Shown: one piece after another, positions 1,957-17,389 of the stretch | How the letters are laid out: each line of letters opens with the position of its first letter | How positions within the stretch are numbered: the first letter of the stretch is position 1 | Origin: a virus | Taxonomy: Duplodnaviria > Heunggongvirae > Uroviricota > Caudoviricetes | Length of the DNA stretch: 17,827 nt | IMG/VR virus record: IMGVR_UViG_2563366903_000004 | Direction: 5' to 3' (one strand) | Notes under the pieces: generated by a model | What the model was told of the DNA's origin: nothing | Database searches by the model: none | The model's input: the letters and a program-made list of their open reading frames with translations, nothing else | Position numbers and translations under genes: made by a program

Positions 1957-3939
1957 TTATGATGATGCCCGGCTTTCGTTAACTTTGACTGTGACCGTAT
2001 CAAGCAGTACCGGATACGTCGCTTTTGCCCCCGTGATATCTGTCAGCGTCAGCGTATCTGCTGTAAAGCCATCATTTGTCCACATCACCAGGTCAAACGC
2101 AGACTGCTCTGTATCATCAATCACCGGCACCACTTTTTCGCTGTTATTTCCCGCAAAGCGGAAAACAACTGTATGCCAGTTATGGTCAAATGCCCCAAAT
2201 GTGCCCAGTTGCGCATTCGACTCCCCCTTGTGGTACATCAGATTCAGATTTGATGCATCCGTCTGAAGGAAGAAGGACGCCAGCATGCTGTTTGCTGTCG
2301 CGCCTGACGCCCACTGCGACACCGGCCAGTACAGACCAAAGACAAACTGACCGTTAACCAGTTCGACACCCTCCGGGATCTTAAACCGCACGGCAATTTC
2401 ACCTCCCTTACTGAGAAGATTTTTTGCCTCCTCCACCGCAACAGTACGGAACATCTTCCAGGAGGTCAGTTTACCCGGCTGTTTTTCCAGTCGCAGCGCC
2501 TTCCTGCCACTGTCATCCGTCACAGTGCCTTTACCACCGGACGCATTCCACTGCTGCTCTGTCCATACACCACTGCCACTGTTCGCATCATATCCGGCCA
2601 CCATTCTTGTTACGGCTTCAGTATGACCGCCTGCAGAAGTACCTGCACCCTGCTGTTGCGTCGGACCCGCAGAGCCAGACTGTGCATCCCCCGTGGAGGC
2701 TGGCGTGGTCGCCAGCGGTGCAGACTGCCCGCTCAGGAACGGCAGCAAACGCCCGGCTCGCACCAGTATCTCTCCTGCCAGCCGATCTGAAACAATGCCT
2801 CTTCGCGCCCAGGAGCTGAAGTGCGTTTTACGATCGGCTGTCGTCCAGTTACCATTACTGCGTGACGCGGCACCATAGTATCCCGCCGTGATAATGTCCG
2901 GATCTTCTGACGGCTCGTTTGTCGGCACATTCGCACCATGCTCATCCGTCATCAACGGCACAAAGTGAATATTCTGCGCCGCCTTGCCTTTATAGCCTCC
3001 GTAAACCGCCTCATACTGCACTGCATACTTCGCCTTCCAGTCGTACGTGGTGTCACCGCAAATCCACGGGACGCCGGACGTTGTCCCGCCAATACACTGG
3101 TCTGCAATATCTGCCAGGTCTGCACGGTATTTATTTACCATGGCAAGAAAAAGTGCATTGTGCTCTGCATGTCTCCCCGAACTGACATCTTTTTCCCCCT
3201 GCATCCAGATCACCGACAACAGCACGTTTTTCGGATTTTTCTTCAGGGCCGCACGGGTTCTGCTGACCAGGTCATGATACAGCGGTTTATCCGCCCCCCA
3301 CAGGGACGAGCCTGCGGTCGCTCCCGACGCTTCGTTAAACGCCCCCTCGGCCCCCGCAGTAAATCCCGAATCGCCACGGCCACATGGAACAAGAAGGATA
3401 CCCGCATTCGCAGGCATAAACGGCAGCAGCTTTTTGGCAACATGCAGAGCATGCCCCACACAACCGTACTGCCCTTTATTGAGGTCTGCTTTCGGGTGAT
3501 TCAGATTACTCACGTCCTGCACATCATGCAGACAGTGGTCTGCCGGAATGATGTCGTTATATTTACAGGCGGCACCACCCGGCGTCACCGTACTGCGACG
3601 CGCCAGCTGTTTAATACGCGGGTCCGGACGGTCATATGTCTCCGGCAGCGGCAGCCCTTCACCAAAAGACATTGAGTTTGACTGCCCCGCCAGAACAACA
3701 ACAAAGTAATACTCCGGTTCGCTGGTGGTGCTGATAACTGTGCCTTCTCCATCCGACGGCTTCACCACCACAGGTGTGGTGACATCACCTTCCGCCGCAA
3801 TGGCCTGCATCAGGGTATAAGGCGTGATGGCGACAGGGCTGCCAAATGGCTGCCACCCCTCCTTCAGTTTTTGTGTCAGTCGCTCCGCAAGGTCTGACGG
3901 CGATGCCGCCCTGACAACATCATAGTGTTTAAATGCCAT
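1957..3939 (-). CDS. nanS-p: Prophage sialate O-acetylesterase, NanS-p-like (SGNH hydrolase family)
   Basis: 665-aa ORF 1957..3954; GQSNSMSFGEG matches the SGNH/GDSL active-site block; recalled similarity to the large esterase gene found downstream of stx in EHEC lambdoid prophages; the second Met (ATG at 3939, preceded by GGTGGAAAG) is the more likely start. Confidence 0.75.
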   Translation of the reverse strand: MAFKHYDVVRAASPSDLAERLTQKLKEGWQPFGSPVAITPYTLMQAIAAEGDVTTPVVVKPSDGEGTVISTTSEPEYYFVVVLAGQSNSMSFGEGLPLPETYDRPDPRIKQLARRSTVTPGGAACKYNDIIPADHCLHDVQDVSNLNHPKADLNKGQYGCVGHALHVAKKLLPFMPANAGILLVPCGRGDSGFTAGAEGAFNEASGATAGSSLWGADKPLYHDLVSRTRAALKKNPKNVLLSVIWMQGEKDVSSGRHAEHNALFLAMVNKYRADLADIADQCIGGTTSGVPWICGDTTYDWKAKYAVQYEAVYGGYKGKAAQNIHFVPLMTDEHGANVPTNEPSEDPDIITAGYYGAASRSNGNWTTADRKTHFSSWARRGIVSDRLAGEILVRAGRLLPFLSGQSAPLATTPASTGDAQSGSAGPTQQQGAGTSAGGHTEAVTRMVAGYDANSGSGVWTEQQWNASGGKGTVTDDSGRKALRLEKQPGKLTSWKMFRTVAVEEAKNLLSKGGEIAVRFKIPEGVELVNGQFVFGLYWPVSQWASGATANSMLASFFLQTDASNLNLMYHKGESNAQLGTFGAFDHNWHTVVFRFAGNNSEKVVPVIDDTEQSAFDLVMWTNDGFTADTLTLTDITGAKATYPVLLDTVTVKVNESRASS

Positions 3940-4132
3940 GGTTCTTTCCACCATCTGAAAAATAATTCTTTAAAATACCTGACATGTAATACAGAAAAAA
4001 CACAAAACCATACCTTAAATAAAAACCTCATCATCAAGCAGATATGCATGGGTAAACTACAAGACGAGATATAAACCACCCTGCATTTAAATAAACAATA
4101 AACAACATCAGAAAAATAATTCTGCTCTATGG

Positions 4133-4552: not shown

Positions 4553-4590
4553 GACAAAATCAATATAAACAGCCCCTCCGGAGAGGGGCT
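4553..4590 (-). terminator. Intrinsic terminator-like hairpin downstream of the GC-rich structured region
   Basis: Perfect 8-bp stem AGCCCCTC-cgga-GAGGGGCT (4571-4590), followed on the minus strand by a U-rich tail GUUUAUAUUGAUUUUG. Confidence 0.5.
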
Positions 4591-4830
4591 GGAGAGTGGC
4601 GCTATGTGCCATTGCATGGTGCCGGGTGCCTCCCGGTGAGTTCAGTATCAGCACCTGAACCCGCACAGAAAGGATAAGGGTCGGTGACAAAACACCAGTT
4701 GCTGATTGCCCCTCCGCACAGGGGGATTCACCATGCCAGTTTCTTTTAACAAACTCCCCGCAAACCAGACAACAGTCAACCGCCTGAATTGTGAGGCATT
4801 TAAAAATTTCAACGGGTAACTGATACCCTG

Positions 4831-5591: not shown

Positions 5592-5670
5592 TGGAGCGGG
5601 TAGCGGGAATCGAACCACGATAAGAAGGTTAACAGCCTTCCGTAATGACCTTTATACGACTGACCCAAAT
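5592..5670 (-). pseudogene. Degenerate tRNA-like element (tRNA relic) between Q and tR'
   Basis: Minus strand has a canonical T-arm/3' end (GGTTCGATTCCCGCTACCCGCTCCA) and a perfect anticodon stem-loop GAAGG-CTGTTAA-CCTTC (anticodon GTT) with a D-loop-like AAAGGTCA, but acceptor and T stems do not pair, so it is not an intact tRNA. Confidence 0.3.
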
Positions 5671-5729: not shown

Positions 5730-6248
5730 CTAAATGGCTAATTGCATGTCAAGGCTTTTAACAGCAACATGCTTAACTTTCTCAACACGTTTACGCATTT
5801 TGAAAGCATTTTGCATTGGTTGGTACAAAACAAATAATGACGCTTTCAGGATATCGTCAATTTCGTTTCTACAGGTTGCCAGTGAAGGTTTTCTCCATCC
5901 CTCGCCACCGCGTCCACACATCTTGCGTGGCTTTGCAGTCGCGTGATAGTAGGATGCAATTGCTCTCTTAGATGAACCATGAGCGTAGTAGCTGAGGAGG
6001 ATGCCAAAGGCTTTCTTGTCAATGTACATGACGGAATCGACGACCTGAGAAATCAACATTCCATCATCATCATTACACATTGGTCTTGTCATAACTCTTC
6101 CCGGCTCTACGCTCTCCATGAACTTCGCTATTACGCTGCTCATGCGCTTTTCCAGACGACCTGAATAAACCCATGCGCCCCACAGTTCAAGCCAGCCATT
6201 CAGCCAATCGTGCTGTTCTTTGGTGAGGTTTAGTTCTCTTATGCCCAT
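5730..6248 (-). CDS. Q: Late-gene antitermination protein Q
   Basis: 172-aa ORF containing WGAW...C.DDD...LL.YY motifs recalled from lambdoid Q antiterminators; directly downstream of ninG and upstream of a tR'-like terminator. Confidence 0.75.
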   Translation of the reverse strand: MGIRELNLTKEQHDWLNGWLELWGAWVYSGRLEKRMSSVIAKFMESVEPGRVMTRPMCNDDDGMLISQVVDSVMYIDKKAFGILLSYYAHGSSKRAIASYYHATAKPRKMCGRGGEGWRKPSLATCRNEIDDILKASLFVLYQPMQNAFKMRKRVEKVKHVAVKSLDMQLAI

Positions 6249-6291: not shown

Positions 6292-6897
6292 TCATGCGGC
6301 CTCACTTCTGCTGTTTCGCAGGTCTTTGAGTTTCTGTTGGTACTCTGCCTTGATGGCCCTGCACTCTTCGACAGTCCAGCGATGGCGGTTATGGTTTGAT
6401 TCGATTTCGTCTACTGCTTCCTGCCCGATGCGGCTAATCAGTTCGACGCGATACGGAACGAGATTTCCGCTTTTGTGCTGGTTGCACACCACGCATTGCT
6501 TGTGAATATTGCGTTCATCAAATCGGAGTTGAGGTGCCGCAGCAGTTGTCCGGTAATGTCCGGCATCCCACTGAGCAGACGTGAGCGTTCCGCACGAGAT
6601 ACATGGTAAGTCGCGGTCTCTTTCTCTGATGAAGGCGTTTACGGCTTGTTGGGCTTGTTTAATCCAGTAACTGCGGGGCTTTAAGGCGAGTTTTCGAATC
6701 TTCAGTTTATCTTTCTGTTTCTGCTCCTCTCGTCGTCGTTTCTTCTCTGCTGCTTTTTCCGCTTTTTCGCGTTCTTTACTTCGTCGTTCGAGTGCTAATT
6801 GAGTTCCGTGTTCCGGGCAGCACCACCACTGATTTGAGAATGCCGGGTGAAACCATTCTTTGCATATTTTGCATTTCCTTCGCGCTGGTTTAGCCAT
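6292..6897 (-). CDS. ninG: NinG/Rap recombination-associated endonuclease
   Basis: 201-aa [107 protein letters not shown]... is near-identical to recalled lambda NinG. Confidence 0.9.
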
Positions 6898-7625
6898 TAA
6901 GCAGCCTCCCCTGTTACTTTCAGCATTCCGTTATCGAGCAGCTTTCTGGTCAGCCACTGTTGACCACGTCCGGTGATTTTTGTGGTGAACGATATCTGTA
7001 TTCCGTGATTTGTGTTGACCGCTGTTTCTTTCACTGTGAAATAGCCGCGCTCCATATATTCCTGCATTGGCACATTTCGCCGGGAACCTGAAGCGATAAG
7101 GATTTTGTGATCGCGCATCCACGCAAACAGTTTGTTTGGACCAATTCCAACAACCTTTGCATAGTTTCCAATCAAAATTCCGCTGGCCTCGCCAACGCGA
7201 TCGGCAAACTCAACTTTAGGTGCTGCGAGAGCAAGCTGTTTCTCCAGTTCAGCCTTCTGGTCTTCAAGGTCGGCCGCAAGGCGCAATGCCTCAGAAAAGG
7301 TTTGTGGTATTTTCGCGGTTGCCCCTTCGAGTTCTCGCCAACGGTCAACAAGACGAGCGGTGAATTCCGGCGACAACTGAGCGACGACAATAATGCTGTC
7401 TCGCTTACCTTGTTCGCCTTCGAATATATACACGCTTGTGAATTTGTTAGGGCTAATTGTTTGTTTATTTTCAACTTTTTGCATTGGAGGAAGTTGAATC
7501 ACCCCACGCTTTGCCAGACGTTCTATTGATATTCTGACATTACCGTGTTGGCTTCCCACCAACTCAGCGATTTCAATGCTTGTCATTTTGATGACGTTGC
7601 TATTTATCAGCTCATTCATTGTCAT
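6897..7625 (-). CDS. Phage antirepressor-like protein (Rha-type N-terminal domain plus KilAC/Ant C-terminal domain; Roi-like)
   Basis: 242-aa ORF; N-terminal segment [22 protein letters not shown] resembles Rha; C-terminal region resembles the antirepressor KilAC domain; its stop overlaps the ninG start by 1 nt (TAATG). An alternative start at Met3 (7619) has better SD spacing. Confidence 0.65.
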
Positions 7626-7651
7626 GTCCTCTCATATTGAAAATTCAGCAA

Positions 7652-7675
7652 TAAAAAACCCAGCCGAAGCTGGGT
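7652..7675 (-). terminator. Intrinsic terminator between the ORF6N gene and the antirepressor gene
   Basis: Minus strand ACCCAGC-ttcg-GCTGGGT hairpin followed by TTTTTTATT; has A- and T-tracts on both sides, so may act bidirectionally. Confidence 0.65.
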
Positions 7676-7693
7676 TTGTTAAGTTGTCAATTG

Positions 7694-8377
7694 TCAGTAG
7701 CGATGCAGTGAAGGCGGCAACTCTTTGTTCTTAAGCCTTTCCCATGCCAGAAGGTTCGTCGGCCCGTCAGGCTCATAAATATCTATATCCCGCGTGTGAT
7801 TAATTAAAACGCCCCTCGCCCTCCCGATGATATACGAGAACTCATAGCCGTAGTCGTGGCATATGCCGGAATAGCCAGACTGAATCAGTTTTAATGCGGG
7901 ATACAACTCACGGAACAATGCCTGTGAGCGGTTGGCATAATCCCACAGCCATACAAGGCTGTCTGTTTCTTTTGCGGAAAGCCCGTTGGGCTTCTTCTCT
8001 TGTTTGCCAGTATTTTTCTCGCACTGGCTGAAATAGCAGTCTTCCAGTTTTTCGAACACTTCCCACGCCCGATCGGTTTCGAGCATTTTTGCATGACGGG
8101 CTGCGCCGCGTTCTGTCCATAGGATGAGGGAGCGAACGTTACGGGCAATTTTCACAGAGTAGTTAAAAGCTACTCTGTGCTTGAACTCACGTAAAGTTTC
8201 ACCTTCAAGTTTGAAGAAGTGTTTTTCCTCAATGAAACGACCTTTGTTTTCGTGGTGATTCTGGCGAATACGAATAGCTTCTGTGCCGTAAAGGTGCGCC
8301 AAAAGTTCGGTAGTGATAACGGGGATCTGCTTGTAAGTAATCGTGGAGAGTGTTTCAACAGAAACTTGAGTTGTCAT
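7694..8377 (-). CDS. ORF6N/KilA-N-type DNA-binding domain protein (227 aa) with an uncharacterised C-terminal half
   Basis: ATG at 8377 with GAGGG 7 nt upstream; N-terminal ~110 aa match the ORF6N pattern (recalled); the gene is bracketed by intrinsic terminators. Confidence 0.55.
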
Positions 8378-8536
8378 AATGACGCCCTCGAGTGGTTTCT
8401 AAACTATCACCACCGTCAGGTTCCTAATCATCGGGTGGCGAGACGTACAGGGTTAGGAACTACCGGGAAACCAACCGGCGAGCTTTTCAGCTCCCCTATA
8501 CGCCCCACCATAATTCAGATGTGCGTGTGCATACGA

Positions 8537-8561
8537 CAATAAAAAACACGCTCGCGGCGTG
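8537..8561 (-). terminator. Intrinsic terminator between ninE and the ORF6N cassette
   Basis: Minus strand ACACGC-cgcga-GCGTGT hairpin followed by TTTTTTATT. Confidence 0.55.
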
Positions 8562-8654
8562 TCTCTGTCGCGGTTTCTATCCGGGGTTCCTAATCCCGAC
8601 GCCAGATTTTGCTGGCGCGTGAGGAATATAGCCCCGAATAAATCATCACGTCAA

Positions 8655-10599: not shown

Positions 10600-11297
10600 A
10601 CACTTGCTCCTTTCAGTCCGAACTTAGCTTTAATTTCTGCGATCTTCGCCAGAGCCTGTGCTCGATTTAGAGGTCTGCCGCCCATGACAGGAAGTTGTTT
10701 TACTGGTTCAGGTATCGTCTCACCACGGTTAATTCGTGCTGTCATACAGGTCAGTTCATCGGCAGCCTTGCGCCGTAATTCCGCGTCAGTCAGCGCATTG
10801 GCCCGCATGTTCTGGTACAGGTTGGTAACCAGCCAGTAGTGCGCGTTTGATTTCCACGGATAAGACTCTGCATCCGGATACAGGCCACGCTTCCGGCAAT
10901 ACTCGTAAACCATATCAACCAGCTCGCTGACGTTTGGCAGTCCGGCGATAACGGATGCTTCTTCCCGGCACCATGCAACAAACTGCCCGGGTGATGGAAG
11001 AAATGGTCGATTCTGCCGACGGGCTACGCGCATTCCTGCGTTAACCTGTTCCATCGAGGTGATCCCGTTTTCCCGGAAAGCCAGAACCCACTGGCGGCGG
11101 ATTTCATTCAGTTCGTTCTGGCCCCGGTTAGCCAGACTCGCCGGGAAAGTTGCCAGTAACTGGCTGAACACACCGTTGATGATCTGCGCTACCTGTTGTA
11201 CCTGCGGCTTTTCGTCGTACTGTTCCGGCATGTTGTTGGCGATCCGACGCATCTGCTCACGGTCAAAGTTAACCATCTGTGCGGCGATGTTTTTCAT
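10596..11297 (-). CDS. P: Replication protein P (DnaB helicase loader)
   Basis: 233-aa ORF MKNIAAQMVNFDREQMRRIANNMPEQYDEKPQVQQVAQIINGVFSQLLATFPASLANRGQNE... is near-identical along its length to recalled lambda P. Confidence 0.95.
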   Translation of the reverse strand: MKNIAAQMVNFDREQMRRIANNMPEQYDEKPQVQQVAQIINGVFSQLLATFPASLANRGQNELNEIRRQWVLAFRENGITSMEQVNAGMRVARRQNRPFLPSPGQFVAWCREEASVIAGLPNVSELVDMVYEYCRKRGLYPDAESYPWKSNAHYWLVTNLYQNMRANALTDAELRRKAADELTCMTARINRGETIPEPVKQLPVMGGRPLNRAQALAKIAEIKAKFGLKGASV

Positions 11298-11965
11298 AAA
11301 TCCACCCCGTAAATCCAGTCAGTGTTTGTCAGGTCGAGTTTTGGTTTGCTGGCTGTCACGCCTGCCTGTTGCTTGTTACGGTTGATTTCGAGCTGGGTCC
11401 ACTTGTCGCGGAGTTTGGCCGGACTCAGCACGTTACCGGACCAGAAGTTGTCCTGGCAGGCCCAGCGGAAAAGCACACACATATCGCGGTGGTTACGTCC
11501 GTCACGTTCACGCATCAGGCGGATATCGTTAGCCCACCCTGCAAAATTCGGTTTTCTGGCTGATGGTGCGATGGTCTTCACCATGTCAAACATCCACTCT
11601 GCGGCGGTCAGGTCTTCTGCTGTTCCCCACTTGCTGCCGCTCTGAATTGCAGCATCCGGTTTAACCACAGAAAGATCGTTTTCTGGCTGGTCAGAGGATT
11701 CGCCAGAATTCTCGGACGAATAATCTTTTCTTTTTTCTTTTGTAATAGTGTCTTTTGTGTCCCCCTGTTTTGAGGGATAGCAATCCCCTAATTTGAGGGA
11801 TGTTTTATCCCTCGTTTTAGGGGGGGTTCCCTCGTTTTGAGGGATGTCCCTCATTTTAGGGGAACCTCCCTCGTTTTGAGGGATGCACCATTCTGAGATG
11901 TTTTTATTTGGTCCAAACATGCCGCCTTGCTGCTTGATAATATTCATTCTGACGAGTTCTAACTT
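11294..11965 (-). pseudogene. O: Replication initiator O, C-terminal portion (gene split by IS insertion)
   Basis: Frame continues from the IS junction (AAG TTA GAA CTC GTC AGA ATG AAT ...) into MNIIKQQGGMFGPNKNISEW...TNTDWIYGVDL, matching recalled lambda O residues ~91-299; contains the ori iterons. Confidence 0.85.
11761..11882 (-). repeat. Lambda-type origin of replication: six iteron-like repeats (TCCCTCAAAACGAGGGA on the coding strand), with an adjacent AT-rich unwinding region at ~11700-11760
   Basis: Six copies of ccctc(g/a)ttt(t/a)gaggga-like 16-18-mers at ~19-23-bp spacing inside the O coding remnant, followed by an A/T-rich tract (cttttcttttttcttttgtaatagtgtcttttgtg). Confidence 0.75.
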
Positions 11966-12007
11966 TGAACCGCCCCGGGTTTCCTGGAGAGTGTTTTATC
12001 TGTGAAC

Positions 12008-12898
12008 TCAGGCTGCCAGATCATCGTTTCCGATGGAAGCATAATAAGCTTTTTCTGCTTCTGCCGGAGGAGTATGGCCCAGCCTTTCCAGCAATCGTCG
12101 ATTGTTATACCAGTCCACCCACGTGAGTGTGGCCAGTTCCACTTCTGCACGGTTTTTCCAGCTCTTACGGTGTATTACCTCCGCTTTGTAAAGACCATTG
12201 ATGCTCTCCGCCATCGCGTTGTCATACGAATCGCCTGTACTTCCTGTTGATGCCAGTAATCCGGCTTCCTTAAGCCGCTGTGTGTAGGCCAGCGATACAT
12301 ACTGAGAACCTTTATCACTGTGATGGACCGTGCCGGACGGTCGACGGGCCCATAACGCCTGCTCCAGTGCATCCAGCACGAATGTCGTCTCCATGGACGA
12401 TGAGACCCGCCACCCCACAATGTATCCGGCAAACACATCAATGATGAACGCCACATAGACGAAGCCCTGCCATGTGCTGACGTAAGTAAAATCAGCCACC
12501 CACAGCTGGTCAGGTCGTTCTGCCACGAACTGACGGTTTACGCGGTCGCCTGCGGCAACGGCTTTCCGGCTGATGGTCGTACGGACCTTTTTACCCCGGA
12601 GAACACCGGCAAGTCCCATAACCGCCATGAGACGTGCCACAGTGCATCTGGCCACTCTGATACCTTCCCGTAACAACTGACGCCAGACTTTACGCACACC
12701 GTATACCTTGTGATTTTCATCGTATACGCGCTGTATCTCTTTCTTCAGCCAGTCATCGCGCTGCGCACGGGCACTGCGTTTATCCGGATGATATCGCTGT
12801 TGCTGACAGTGGTAATACGTTGACGGGGCAATATGCAGTTCGCTGCATAGCGGTCCGACCCCGTACTGCTCACGCAGCTTATCCAGCAGTGGCATCAT
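12008..12898 (-). CDS. IS3-family transposase OrfB (DDE catalytic domain)
   Basis: 296-aa ORF; recalled as the IS629 OrfB sequence; normally expressed as an OrfAB fusion by -1 frameshift. Confidence 0.9.
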
Positions 12899-13221
12899 TT
12901 TTTCCAGAGGCGGTCGAACTCCGCCTTCGCAAAATAAGCGGAAGCCTGGCGAAGGATATCGTTACTGCGGCGCAGTTCACGATTTTCACGCTCCAGCTCT
13001 TTCAGACGCTGACGTTCAGCGGTGGTGAGCCCTCCATCACCGCCCCCGGTATCCCGCTCATGCTGGCGAACCCAGACACGCAGAGTCTCCGGCGTACAGC
13101 CAATCTTTGGAGCAATGGAACAAATTGTCGCCCATTGTGAGTCATATTCGCCCTGACTTTCCAGAACCATACGGACTGCCCGTTGACGGACTTCAGGGGA
13201 AAAACGAGTATTTTTAGTCAT
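12895..13221 (-). CDS. IS3-family transposase OrfA (HTH domain)
   Basis: 108-aa [60 protein letters not shown]...; ends in an A-rich run (TGG AAA AAA TGA) overlapping the OrfB start, consistent with a programmed -1 frameshift site. Confidence 0.9.
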
Positions 13222-13272
13222 CCTGTTTACCTCTTTCTCAGGAAGTTTAGTCTCCAGGATTCCCGGGGCGGT

Positions 13273-17005: not shown

Positions 17006-17389
17006 ATGACACGCAGAACTCAGTTCAAAGGCAATTCACGTTCTCGTCGTCGTGAGCGTTTAAAGGCAAAGGCATTAGCTAACTGCGTACTGGCCCGCGA
17101 AGAAGCAATAAGTTCAGAAGTATTACACCGCCCTACTCTAAGCAGAGCGCAGATTCAGGCTAAAGGTACTCACGAAACGCCTGAGCGCATAGAAGACGCT
17201 AAGCCAATTAAGTTCATTGCACAGGACGTGATCTGGCAACAGAAAGAATACAGACGCAATCTGGAGCGAGCAGCCATTGTGTACGCGAATGAGTTTGGAC
17301 ATAAGCAACCAGAAACTGGTGTATGTCTTCCAAACGTAGCCATTTACGCGGCAGGCTACCGGAAATCAAAACAACTGACGGCAAGATGA
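17006..17389 (+). CDS. N: Antitermination protein N
   Basis: 127-aa ORF with an N-terminal arginine-rich motif (MTRRTQFKGNSRSRRRERLKAK); GGAGG RBS 7 nt upstream; candidate nutL boxB hairpin ~170 nt upstream. Confidence 0.85.
   Translation: MTRRTQFKGNSRSRRRERLKAKALANCVLAREEAISSEVLHRPTLSRAQIQAKGTHETPERIEDAKPIKFIAQDVIWQQKEYRRNLERAAIVYANEFGHKQPETGVCLPNVAIYAAGYRKSKQLTAR

Follow-up and report, generated by a model that had tools for sequence, protein, structure and literature searches.

An antisense RNA control module of the phage P1 immI type proposed for the ant locus of a lambdoid prophage

The stretch of DNA analysed here (the window) comprises 17,827 nucleotides (nt) of a lambdoid prophage of the Caudoviricetes (IMG/VR record IMGVR_UViG_2563366903_000004), in which an open reading frame (ORF) for an antirepressor-type protein, ant (7694–8377, minus strand, 227 aa, start codon ATG at 8377), is located in the nin region between ninE and roi. 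We hold it to be very probable that the gap between ninE and ant, together with ant itself, is an antisense-RNA control module of the type found in the immI locus of phage P1. This view is carried by the membership of its elements in known sequence and structure families, by the complementarity of short sites within them and by the co-variation of these sites across related loci. Three copies of a short motif in this region had been regarded as candidate operators in a first-pass annotation of the window made from the letters alone. Judged from their sequence and position, they appear to be the sites a1, a′ and a2 of a P1 immI-type system, and hence sites for RNA pairing rather than for protein binding. 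The module belongs to known RNA families and is unannotated here in RefSeq: in the record of the prophage of E. coli NCTC9112, which is 100% identical in this region, the 278-bp gap between NinE and Ant carries no annotation at all. All genes of the locus are on the minus strand, which is referred to below as the coding strand, and the features described are on this strand throughout.

RNA genes and pairing sites in the ninE–ant gap

RNA families were called with Rfam covariance models, a score above the curated gathering threshold being the criterion. The family isrK (RF01394) matches positions 8541–8618 with 70.1 bits (gathering 50) over the full model (model positions 1–77), the family c4-a1b1 (RF03163) matches 8578–8631 with 47.8 bits (gathering 46.7), and the C4 antisense RNA (RF01695) matches 8431–8515 with 66 bits (gathering 45), again over the full model. 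Together the three families cover all three copies of the motif. With a C4 model built in this analysis, the C4 of the window reaches 88 bits. Upstream of isrK, directly after the stop codon of ninE, there is a promoter-like site (8625–8654), named P_isrK here as the putative homolog of P51b in P1, with a −35 element TTGACG (8654–8649), an 18-nt spacer and a −10 element TATATT (8630–8625), which ends 7 nt before the start of the isrK model at 8618. It has 10 of the 12 consensus positions and can be aligned both with the sigma-70 promoter annotated as P1c4/P51b in P1 and with the sequence TTGACA-N17-TATATT upstream of isrK in the Salmonella prophage Gifsy-1. The spacer (8631–8648) contains a motif, T(C/T)CGGGGCTATA, which is conserved in the window, in Gifsy-1 and in four other loci (L002, L006, L009 and L022). 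Such conservation exceeds the usual need of a spacer, and the motif may bind a regulator.

The predicted IsrK/a1b1 RNA of about 78 nt (8541–8618) consists of hairpin 1 (8618–8599), hairpin 2 (8598–8582) with a1 in its loop, the site b1 and terminator 1, and in hairpin 1 four pairs show double compensatory changes among 11 loci. Terminator 1 (8541–8562), which is included in the isrK match as the terminator of IsrK, has a GC-rich stem of 6 bp (ACACGC/GCGTGT) with the loop CGCGA at 8562–8546, followed by UUUUU at 8545–8541, and folds with a free energy (ΔG) of −11.0. The sequence of its stem varies among the loci and its self-complementarity is kept. A consensus terminator scan of the minus strand did not list it; folding confirmed it, as did the Rfam isrK model, whose 3′ hairpin it forms. 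Terminator 2 (7649–7677), between ant and roi, has a 9-bp stem AAACCCAGC/GCTGGGTTT at 7677–7656 with a UUCG loop and a following U-run, and its predicted ΔG is −14.2; its sequence is the same in PA11, Nil2 and NCTC9112 and thus shows no covariation. Around terminator 2, IsrJ-like or other RNA families were absent in the Rfam search, which gave matches at chance level only. Thus the two intrinsic terminators of the first-pass annotation are both there as genuine-looking hairpins with U-runs, and so is the ORF6N gene of 227 aa that it had placed between them. The C4 RNA, in which a long closing stem encloses two hairpins, has a predicted fold of −43.8 kcal/mol and double compensatory changes at 11 of 27 pairs in 12 loci, P1 included. 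From its homology with P1, its mature form is predicted to extend from about 8509 to 8434, that is, from a GGU at the RNase P site (8509–8507) to CCACC at the 3′ end of the C4 stem.

On the coding strand, the 11-mer GATTAGGAACC is found exactly at 8595–8585 and 8429–8419, and the inverted 8-mer core GTTCCTAA at 8460–8453, so that all three copies claimed before, two direct and one inverted, were recovered. The upstream copy (8585–8596) has as its core the a1 site TTAGGAAC (8586–8593), which lies in the IsrK RNA and is a perfect complement of the a′ segment GUUCCUAA (8453–8460). The latter is the inverted copy (8450–8460) and lies in the unpaired 3′ stretch of C4. The third copy (8418–8429) has as its core the a2 site TTAGGAAC (8420–8427), which begins 4 nt after the Rfam C4 match. 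Moreover, there is a second trio, overlooked by the first-pass annotation and unrelated in sequence to the first: b1, GAAACC(G), at 8572–8577, the equivalent of which is annotated in P1; b′, UGGUUUC, at 8467–8473 in the loop of C4 hairpin 2, which complements both b1 and b2; and b2, GAAACCA, at 8393–8399 in the ant leader, which ends 3 nt before the Shine-Dalgarno sequence GAGGG of ant (8389–8385) and leaves 15 nt between its end (8393) and the ATG at 8377. All 8 positions of a′:a2 and all 7 of b′:b2 are Watson-Crick pairs. A search of the window for the motif gave a divided result: TTAGGAAC is absent elsewhere in the 17.8-kb window, and the clustered arrangement is unusual, since of 20,000 dinucleotide shuffles of the 291-nt region only 102 had any 8-mer in two direct copies and one inverted copy, whereas with one mismatch GGTTCCTAA was found 5 times window-wide against 3.2 expected, which is no enrichment. 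When C4 was paired over its whole length with IsrK or with the leader using RNAduplex, 73 and 60 of 1,000 shuffles, respectively, were equally good, a method that ignores intramolecular structure; tests of complementarity at the specific sites were used in place of these energies. Between a2 and b2 there is a further conserved sequence, GGTGGTGA (8407–8414), which complements the 3′ strand of the C4 closing stem, occurs at the homologous position in L002, L005, L006, L008, L018, L022 and P1, and co-varies in L008 (GCGGTGG with CCACCGC). In the unprocessed precursor it may pair alternatively as a hairpin with a2 in its loop.

Related loci and the systems of P1, Gifsy-1, Stx phages and P22

Eighty loci encoding ORF6N relatives were collected, and 20 of them were scanned with Rfam. 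A C4 or C4-like (sRNA-Xcc1) RNA ends 35–50 nt before the ORF6N gene in 17 of these 20, and isrK lies upstream of it in seven; the C4 model of this analysis recognised C4-type RNAs in 18 of all 80 loci, some of them from Chromatium. For the comparison of sites, a set of 22 loci was used, including P1, Gifsy-1 and two Shiga toxin (Stx) phages. At least 15 a′ alleles are present in this set, b′ is about as diverse, and a1, a2 and b2 are complementary to a′ or b′ throughout, except a2 in L026 and a1 in L033 and L080. The weakest site is b1, for which the script found no clear match in L083, L018 and L033, a match being readable by eye in the first two. Each C4 pairs best with its own targets (mean 15.6 on the diagonal versus 11.2 off it), except among loci sharing alleles, and the a and b alleles reassort between phages. 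In the other C4-type loci compared, the b2 site abuts or overlaps the Shine-Dalgarno sequence. The copy at the ea/int end of phage PA2 is especially informative: from IsrK hairpin 2 onward, which is the part compared, 6 of 24 a-site positions are unlike those of the window, against 4 of 207 positions elsewhere (Fisher p = 1e-4), and the changes are coordinated with complementarity kept (TTAGGAAC/GTTCCTAA/TTAGGAAC in the window versus TTCGAAC/GTTCGAA/TTCGAAC in PA2). This coordinated triple change indicates selection on pairing.

Two further kinds of arrangement were seen among these loci. In Mixta mediterraneensis (L006, 1264–3168), two IsrK-C4-ant modules stand in tandem about 1 kb apart, with a common b allele (CCUUUUCAG) and differing a alleles (GUUCCAA and GUGCAAA), as if one module had been duplicated and only the specificity site had since diverged. 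And in Pectobacterium, Serratia, Brenneria, Arsenophonus and related genomes (L007, L010–L014, L016, L017, L019 and L020), it is sRNA-Xcc1 (RF02221, 68–78 bits) and not C4 that lies upstream of the ORF6N gene, at about 1370–1465, as a second structural class in the position of C4; Rfam puts C4 and Xcc1 in no common clan.

In phage P1 the annotated order is the constitutive promoter P51b, a1, b1, C4, a2, b2, icd and ant1/ant2, all co-directional, with C4 at 3344–3420 of the P1 sequence used (L085), a2 3 nt after its annotated 3′ end, and b2 overlapping the Shine-Dalgarno sequence of icd. The window shares with P1 the order, spacing and common direction of the parts (promoter, hairpin, a1, b1, hairpin with U-run, C4, a2, b2 at the ribosome-binding site, antirepressor gene), and its a2 is placed with respect to C4 as in the P1 annotation. 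The C4 of P1 also has the same fold, its a′ lying in the single-stranded 3′ part and its b′ in the hairpin-2 loop. Between b1 and C4, P1 gives an isrK-like match below threshold (35 bits) with a hairpin and a U-run, and since this element is present we take the two architectures to be homologous end to end, although the hairpin is strong in the window and weak in P1. There are also differences. The C1 operator and the second promoter (P51a) of P1 were not recognised in the window; Ant1 of P1 has KilAC only and is without ORF6N, whereas Ant of the window has ORF6N and P22_AR_C; and the module of the window, placed within a lambdoid nin region, also receives transcription from pR under N. In P1 and P7, RNase P matures C4 to an RNA of about 77 nt by cutting it where the closing stem has a GGW motif at its 5′ end, its b′ partly occludes the ribosome-binding site, and its a′ sets the target specificity, a difference of about 4 nt between P1 and P7 preventing cross-reaction (PMC5320573). 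Processing and occlusion are settled for these two phages and, by analogy, would be expected in the window, whose a and b alleles follow the same logic of specificity as P1 versus P7.

The second relative is the isrK-orf45-anrP locus of Gifsy-1, for which the experimental statements below and in the following section come from Hershko-Shalev et al. (2016; PMC4825925). There, the short IsrK made from P_isrK stops at a terminator of its own, past which part of the transcription continues; the read-through isrK-orf45-anrP mRNA is translationally silent, and the short IsrK switches on the translation of anrP in trans. The orf45 region yields a stable processed RNA, STnc1160, and compensatory mutant pairs were made at G28:C162 and G31:C159. 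We took the Gifsy-1 sequence by accession (it was not recovered by megablast with L009 as the query) and numbered the Q–anrP gap from the 5′ end of IsrK, which reproduces all the diagnostic positions (C18, G28, G31, AUG107, AUG119–121, C159, C162, G173 and C175). In this numbering a1 is U26–U32 and a′ is A158–A164, and both mutant pairs fall within the a1:a′ duplex. By this numbering, the pairing proven in Gifsy-1 is the a1:a′ interaction of P1 and the homolog of the first two motif copies of the window, where the corresponding duplex is perfect. Gifsy-1 and the window share the promoter, IsrK, the terminator, the C4-type RNA and the layout of a2 and b2, and in both of them b2 abuts the Shine-Dalgarno sequence of the antirepressor gene. 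On the other hand, their a and b alleles differ, the module of Gifsy-1 is downstream of Q while that of the window is between ninE and roi, no isrJ match was found by Rfam downstream in the window, and AnrP is 67% identical to Ant over the ORF6N part (residues 1–126 of Ant) and unrelated in the C-terminal half. The frame called orf45 opens with a conserved AUGG, which is located where the C4 homolog has its 5′ end and is present in the window at 8511–8508; across the 22 loci the length of this frame varies between 0 and 100 codons, with a stop inside C4 in nine of them, and the orf45/C4 region would thus seem to be generally non-coding. Termination and read-through of IsrK, its action in trans and the a1:a′ pairing are settled for Gifsy-1, and we infer the same for the window by homology. 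The authors likened IsrK to seqA/CI of P4, and P1 C4 is not mentioned in the sections consulted. The present analysis joins the literatures on C4 of P1 and IsrK of Gifsy-1, which do not cite each other on this point.

The regulated gene is predicted from its domains and annotation to encode an antirepressor-type protein, named 'phage antirepressor Ant' in RefSeq. Residues 12–98 form an ORF6N domain (Pfam, E = 1.2e-19), and the C-terminal half, called uncharacterised in the first-pass annotation, matched P22_AR_C (PF10548, E = 3.5e-24) at residues 127–199 in a hidden Markov model search. Sequence homologs of Ant were absent from the PDB. Ant is 81% identical to that of the Stx phage PA11, of the VT2-Sakai genus, whose RNA region is 84% identical to the window with the same architecture and a different a allele (ACGCCAA versus GUUCCUAA). 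The Ant family and the gene order ninE-ant-roi-ninG-Q are the same in φ24B and VT2-Sakai. In φ24B, Ant is an enhancer of induction: an ant knockout reduces the pR′ output to 27–56% of the wild type, and a weak ant transcript is present in lysogens (Fogg et al. 2011, PMC3064807). This role is settled for φ24B, and by family membership it may hold for the window too. The papers on ant of Stx phages (PMC3064807; Smith et al. 2012, PMC3430580) do not mention control of ant by antisense RNA, the word 'antisense' occurring 0 times, and no published link between the C4 antisense RNA and ant of Stx phages was found, isrK and C4 appearing together in two papers and there only as annotation.

With Ant of P22, Ant of the window shares the P22 antirepressor C-terminal domain, and in both phages the antirepressor would be silenced partly by RNA. 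The ant gene of P22 is controlled by the protein repressors Mnt and Arc and by sar, a cis-antisense RNA from the opposite strand, whereas the regulator of the window is co-directional and would be cut out of the ant transcript itself. The neighbours of ant in the window are ninE and roi, and there is no gene like arc or mnt on either side. Furthermore, antirepressors under LexA control (Gifsy/Fels type) have an SOS box in their promoter region, and the leader of the window has none: CTGT-N8-ACAG is absent between 8378 and 8660 with up to one mismatch allowed. The gene after terminator 2, roi (6897–7625), encodes a Rha-like N-terminus and a KilAC/ANT domain as in Ant1 of P1, and is labelled roi or 'antirepressor KilAC' in database records. 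Two different antirepressor-type proteins are thus encoded in tandem, and the C4 control region is present at ant only.

Proposed circuit and competing explanations

Considering the order of the elements and the work on their relatives, we propose the following circuit. In the lysogen, P_isrK alone would be active, and the first 78 nt of its transcript would be the IsrK/a1b1 RNA. Most transcripts would stop at terminator 1 and give free IsrK, while read-through transcripts, extending as far as terminator 2, would comprise C4, a2, b2 and the ant mRNA. A cut by RNase P at the GGU (about 8509) would release C4, whose a′ could then pair with a2 and whose b′ loop could pair with b2 next to the Shine-Dalgarno sequence, so that the loading of ribosomes on ant would be blocked and Ant would be off. 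IsrK, by a1 and b1, would compete for a′ and b′ as an anti-antisense decoy that relieves the repression, a role that we infer from the sites it carries. The ratio of IsrK to C4, and hence the efficiency of terminator 1, would set the threshold, and the a and b sequences would be the specificity code of the module. On induction, N-modified transcription from pR would pass ninE and both terminators and bring an excess of target and decoy, Ant would be made, and it would antagonise the prophage repressor and reinforce induction, which is consistent with the phenotype of the φ24B ant knockout.

Several observations weigh against this reading. The promoter call depends on the consensus match and on homology. 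P1 has the icd ORF between b2 and ant, whose translation is required for ant to be expressed, and the window has no counterpart of it, its b2 abutting the Shine-Dalgarno sequence of ant itself; in this the window departs from the P1 architecture and not from the Rfam RNA family. For Gifsy-1, the authors ascribe the action of IsrK to a refolding of the long mRNA and to the translation of orf45 and not to titration, and constitutive STnc1160 did not counteract IsrK (PMC4825925). The frame has 45 codons and an ATGA overlap in Gifsy-1, whereas in the window it stops after 27 codons (at 8430–8428), 50 nt before the ATG of ant. Folding reproduces the cis-paired structure of minimum energy in Gifsy-1, unlike in the window, where the cis-paired and independent folds of the read-through RNA (−78.5 and −79.5 kcal/mol) are no more than 1 kcal/mol apart. 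In addition, an insertion sequence (IS) of the IS3 family lies near the replication genes, and the prophage may be defective.

Taken literally, the Gifsy-1 model would make the C4 region of the window the orf45 coding sequence, with IsrK refolding the mRNA, ant translated by coupling and no processed antisense RNA. The isrK-orf45-anrP experiments speak for it, including the effect of stop-codon mutants (PMC4825925), and the conserved AUGG is there in the window. Yet the frame is not conserved in the 22 loci, and its early end in the window, already mentioned, implies that translational coupling would be impossible here; the AUG at 8511 is not preceded by a Shine-Dalgarno sequence, the region scores as a C4 RNA with structural covariation, and Gifsy-1 itself yields the stable processed STnc1160. 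We regard this model as very unlikely for the window. Terminators of the lambda tR2–tR4 class are intrinsic terminators of the nin region that block transcription from pR unless it is N-modified, and the first-pass annotation had pointed to this general role of nin-region terminators. Both hairpins of the window have the canonical form with a U-run and lie in the nin region, N being encoded by the same prophage (17006–17389), and they would stop transcription from pR that is not antiterminated in any case, but terminator 1 is primarily that of IsrK. Were they nothing else, the repeats would be inert remnants of recombination at a module boundary, or of a decayed module, for which the position of the module at mosaic junctions in several genomic contexts and the IS3-family insertion could be cited. 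All RNA elements are, however, intact and above the curated thresholds, the triple change relative to PA2 is coordinated, and a 100% identical RNA module is retained in unrelated strains such as O104:H4, which makes this explanation very unlikely.

The proposal that the motif copies are DNA operators bound by the adjacent ORF6N protein, as an autoregulated switch or a defence factor, has the domain itself in its favour, as ORF6N (matched here by Pfam) is a member of the KilA-N/Bro-N-like superfamily, whose domains bind DNA. A concerted change would be expected of operators too, so three-way co-variation alone is compatible with them, and when identical ORF6N domains with different motif alleles were sought, the domains did differ between loci with different alleles. 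What speaks against operators is that the middle copy is part of the unpaired 3′ stretch of C4, a structured RNA supported by covariation, and the outer two copies are its RNA targets; that P1 has the same a/b architecture and yet its Ant1 lacks ORF6N; that the b1/b′/b2 trio is unrelated in sequence and sits at the ribosome-binding site; and that compensatory mutations demonstrate pairing between RNAs at the homologous sites of Gifsy-1 (PMC4825925). The non-Watson-Crick positions embedded in the duplexes, 19 in those listed, are all G·U, in runs that were defined allowing G·U, and as G·U is sensible only for RNA this too argues for RNA pairing and not for a DNA operator. Operators are thus very unlikely, and nothing in the analysis supports a role in defence. 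The broader idea of the first-pass annotation, a self-contained regulatory cassette for an antirepressor-type protein with the motif as its regulatory determinant, is borne out.

Beyond the immI-type module as such, we tentatively suggest, at somewhat less than an even chance, that IsrK is the long-unexplained a1/b1 element acting as a terminator-gated decoy, that immI of P1, isrK-anrP of Gifsy-1 and ant of the Stx phages are one three-RNA circuit, and that the hypervariable, reassorting a and b alleles are an RNA specificity code by which antirepressor control is either insulated or coupled between the several lambdoid prophages of one E. coli cell, Stx phages included. If this is true, the ratio of terminated IsrK to read-through C4 sets the translation of the antirepressor, and coordinated triple changes such as that between the window and PA2 would have been selected as switches of specificity, through which a module escapes cross-repression from another prophage in the same cell.

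Distribution of the module and other features of the window

Of 5,426 complete E. coli genomes, 764 carry the RNA region, each at no more than four sites, and 367 phage records, mostly of Stx phages, contain the ant region; the exact 1.1-kb stretch is 100% identical in NCTC9112 only, among the matches listed. The module occurs after ninE (window), before ninB (O104:H4), at the ea end of PA2, after Q (Gifsy-1) and in immI of P1. With its own promoter-like site, its own terminator (terminator 2) and variable insertion sites it has the features of a moron-type cassette, and from its composition the locus appears to be a self-contained mobile module of promoter, IsrK decoy with terminator, C4, ant and terminator. 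The seemingly empty 278-bp gap beside ant in many E. coli prophages would hold two RNA genes and four target sites, which together probably decide whether the antirepressor is made. Considering that Ant in φ24B raises induction and late (Stx-region) transcription, the circuit is a plausible modulator of the induction of Stx phages and of cross-talk between prophages. In PA2 (Oslovirus; L087, 2501–3399), the RNA module and ant at the ea/int end adjoin HigA-like genes, and in O104:H4 (L088, 9001–9912), where the RNA region is 100% identical, they lie upstream of ninB in a non-Stx prophage by RelE/Doc toxin-antitoxin genes.

Elsewhere in the window, the IS3-family element (11950–13250, minus strand) lies between the cII side and the replication genes and comprises orfA (12895–13221), orfB (12008–12898, with rve domains) and an ALIL frameshift pseudoknot (RF01497, 12824–12940, 120 bits), all on the minus strand. 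The adjoining ORF of 217 aa (11294–11947) had no Pfam match; it may be a truncated O gene, and the prophage may be replication-defective. The NCTC9112 prophage, an exact match at the ant region, is not colinear with the window at the IS3 region. A strong match to the small RNA STnc100 (RF02076, 137.6 bits) is located at 4561–4765 (minus strand), about 1 kb downstream of the gene for the Q antiterminator (5730–6248) and upstream of a gene for a SASA-family esterase (1957–3954). Moreover, a borderline tRNA match (Rfam, 32.6 bits, gathering 29) lies at 5597–5666 (minus strand), just downstream of Q. ARAGORN found no tRNA across the whole window, and the match probably marks the degenerate remnant of a tRNA, such as Stx-type phages have after Q.

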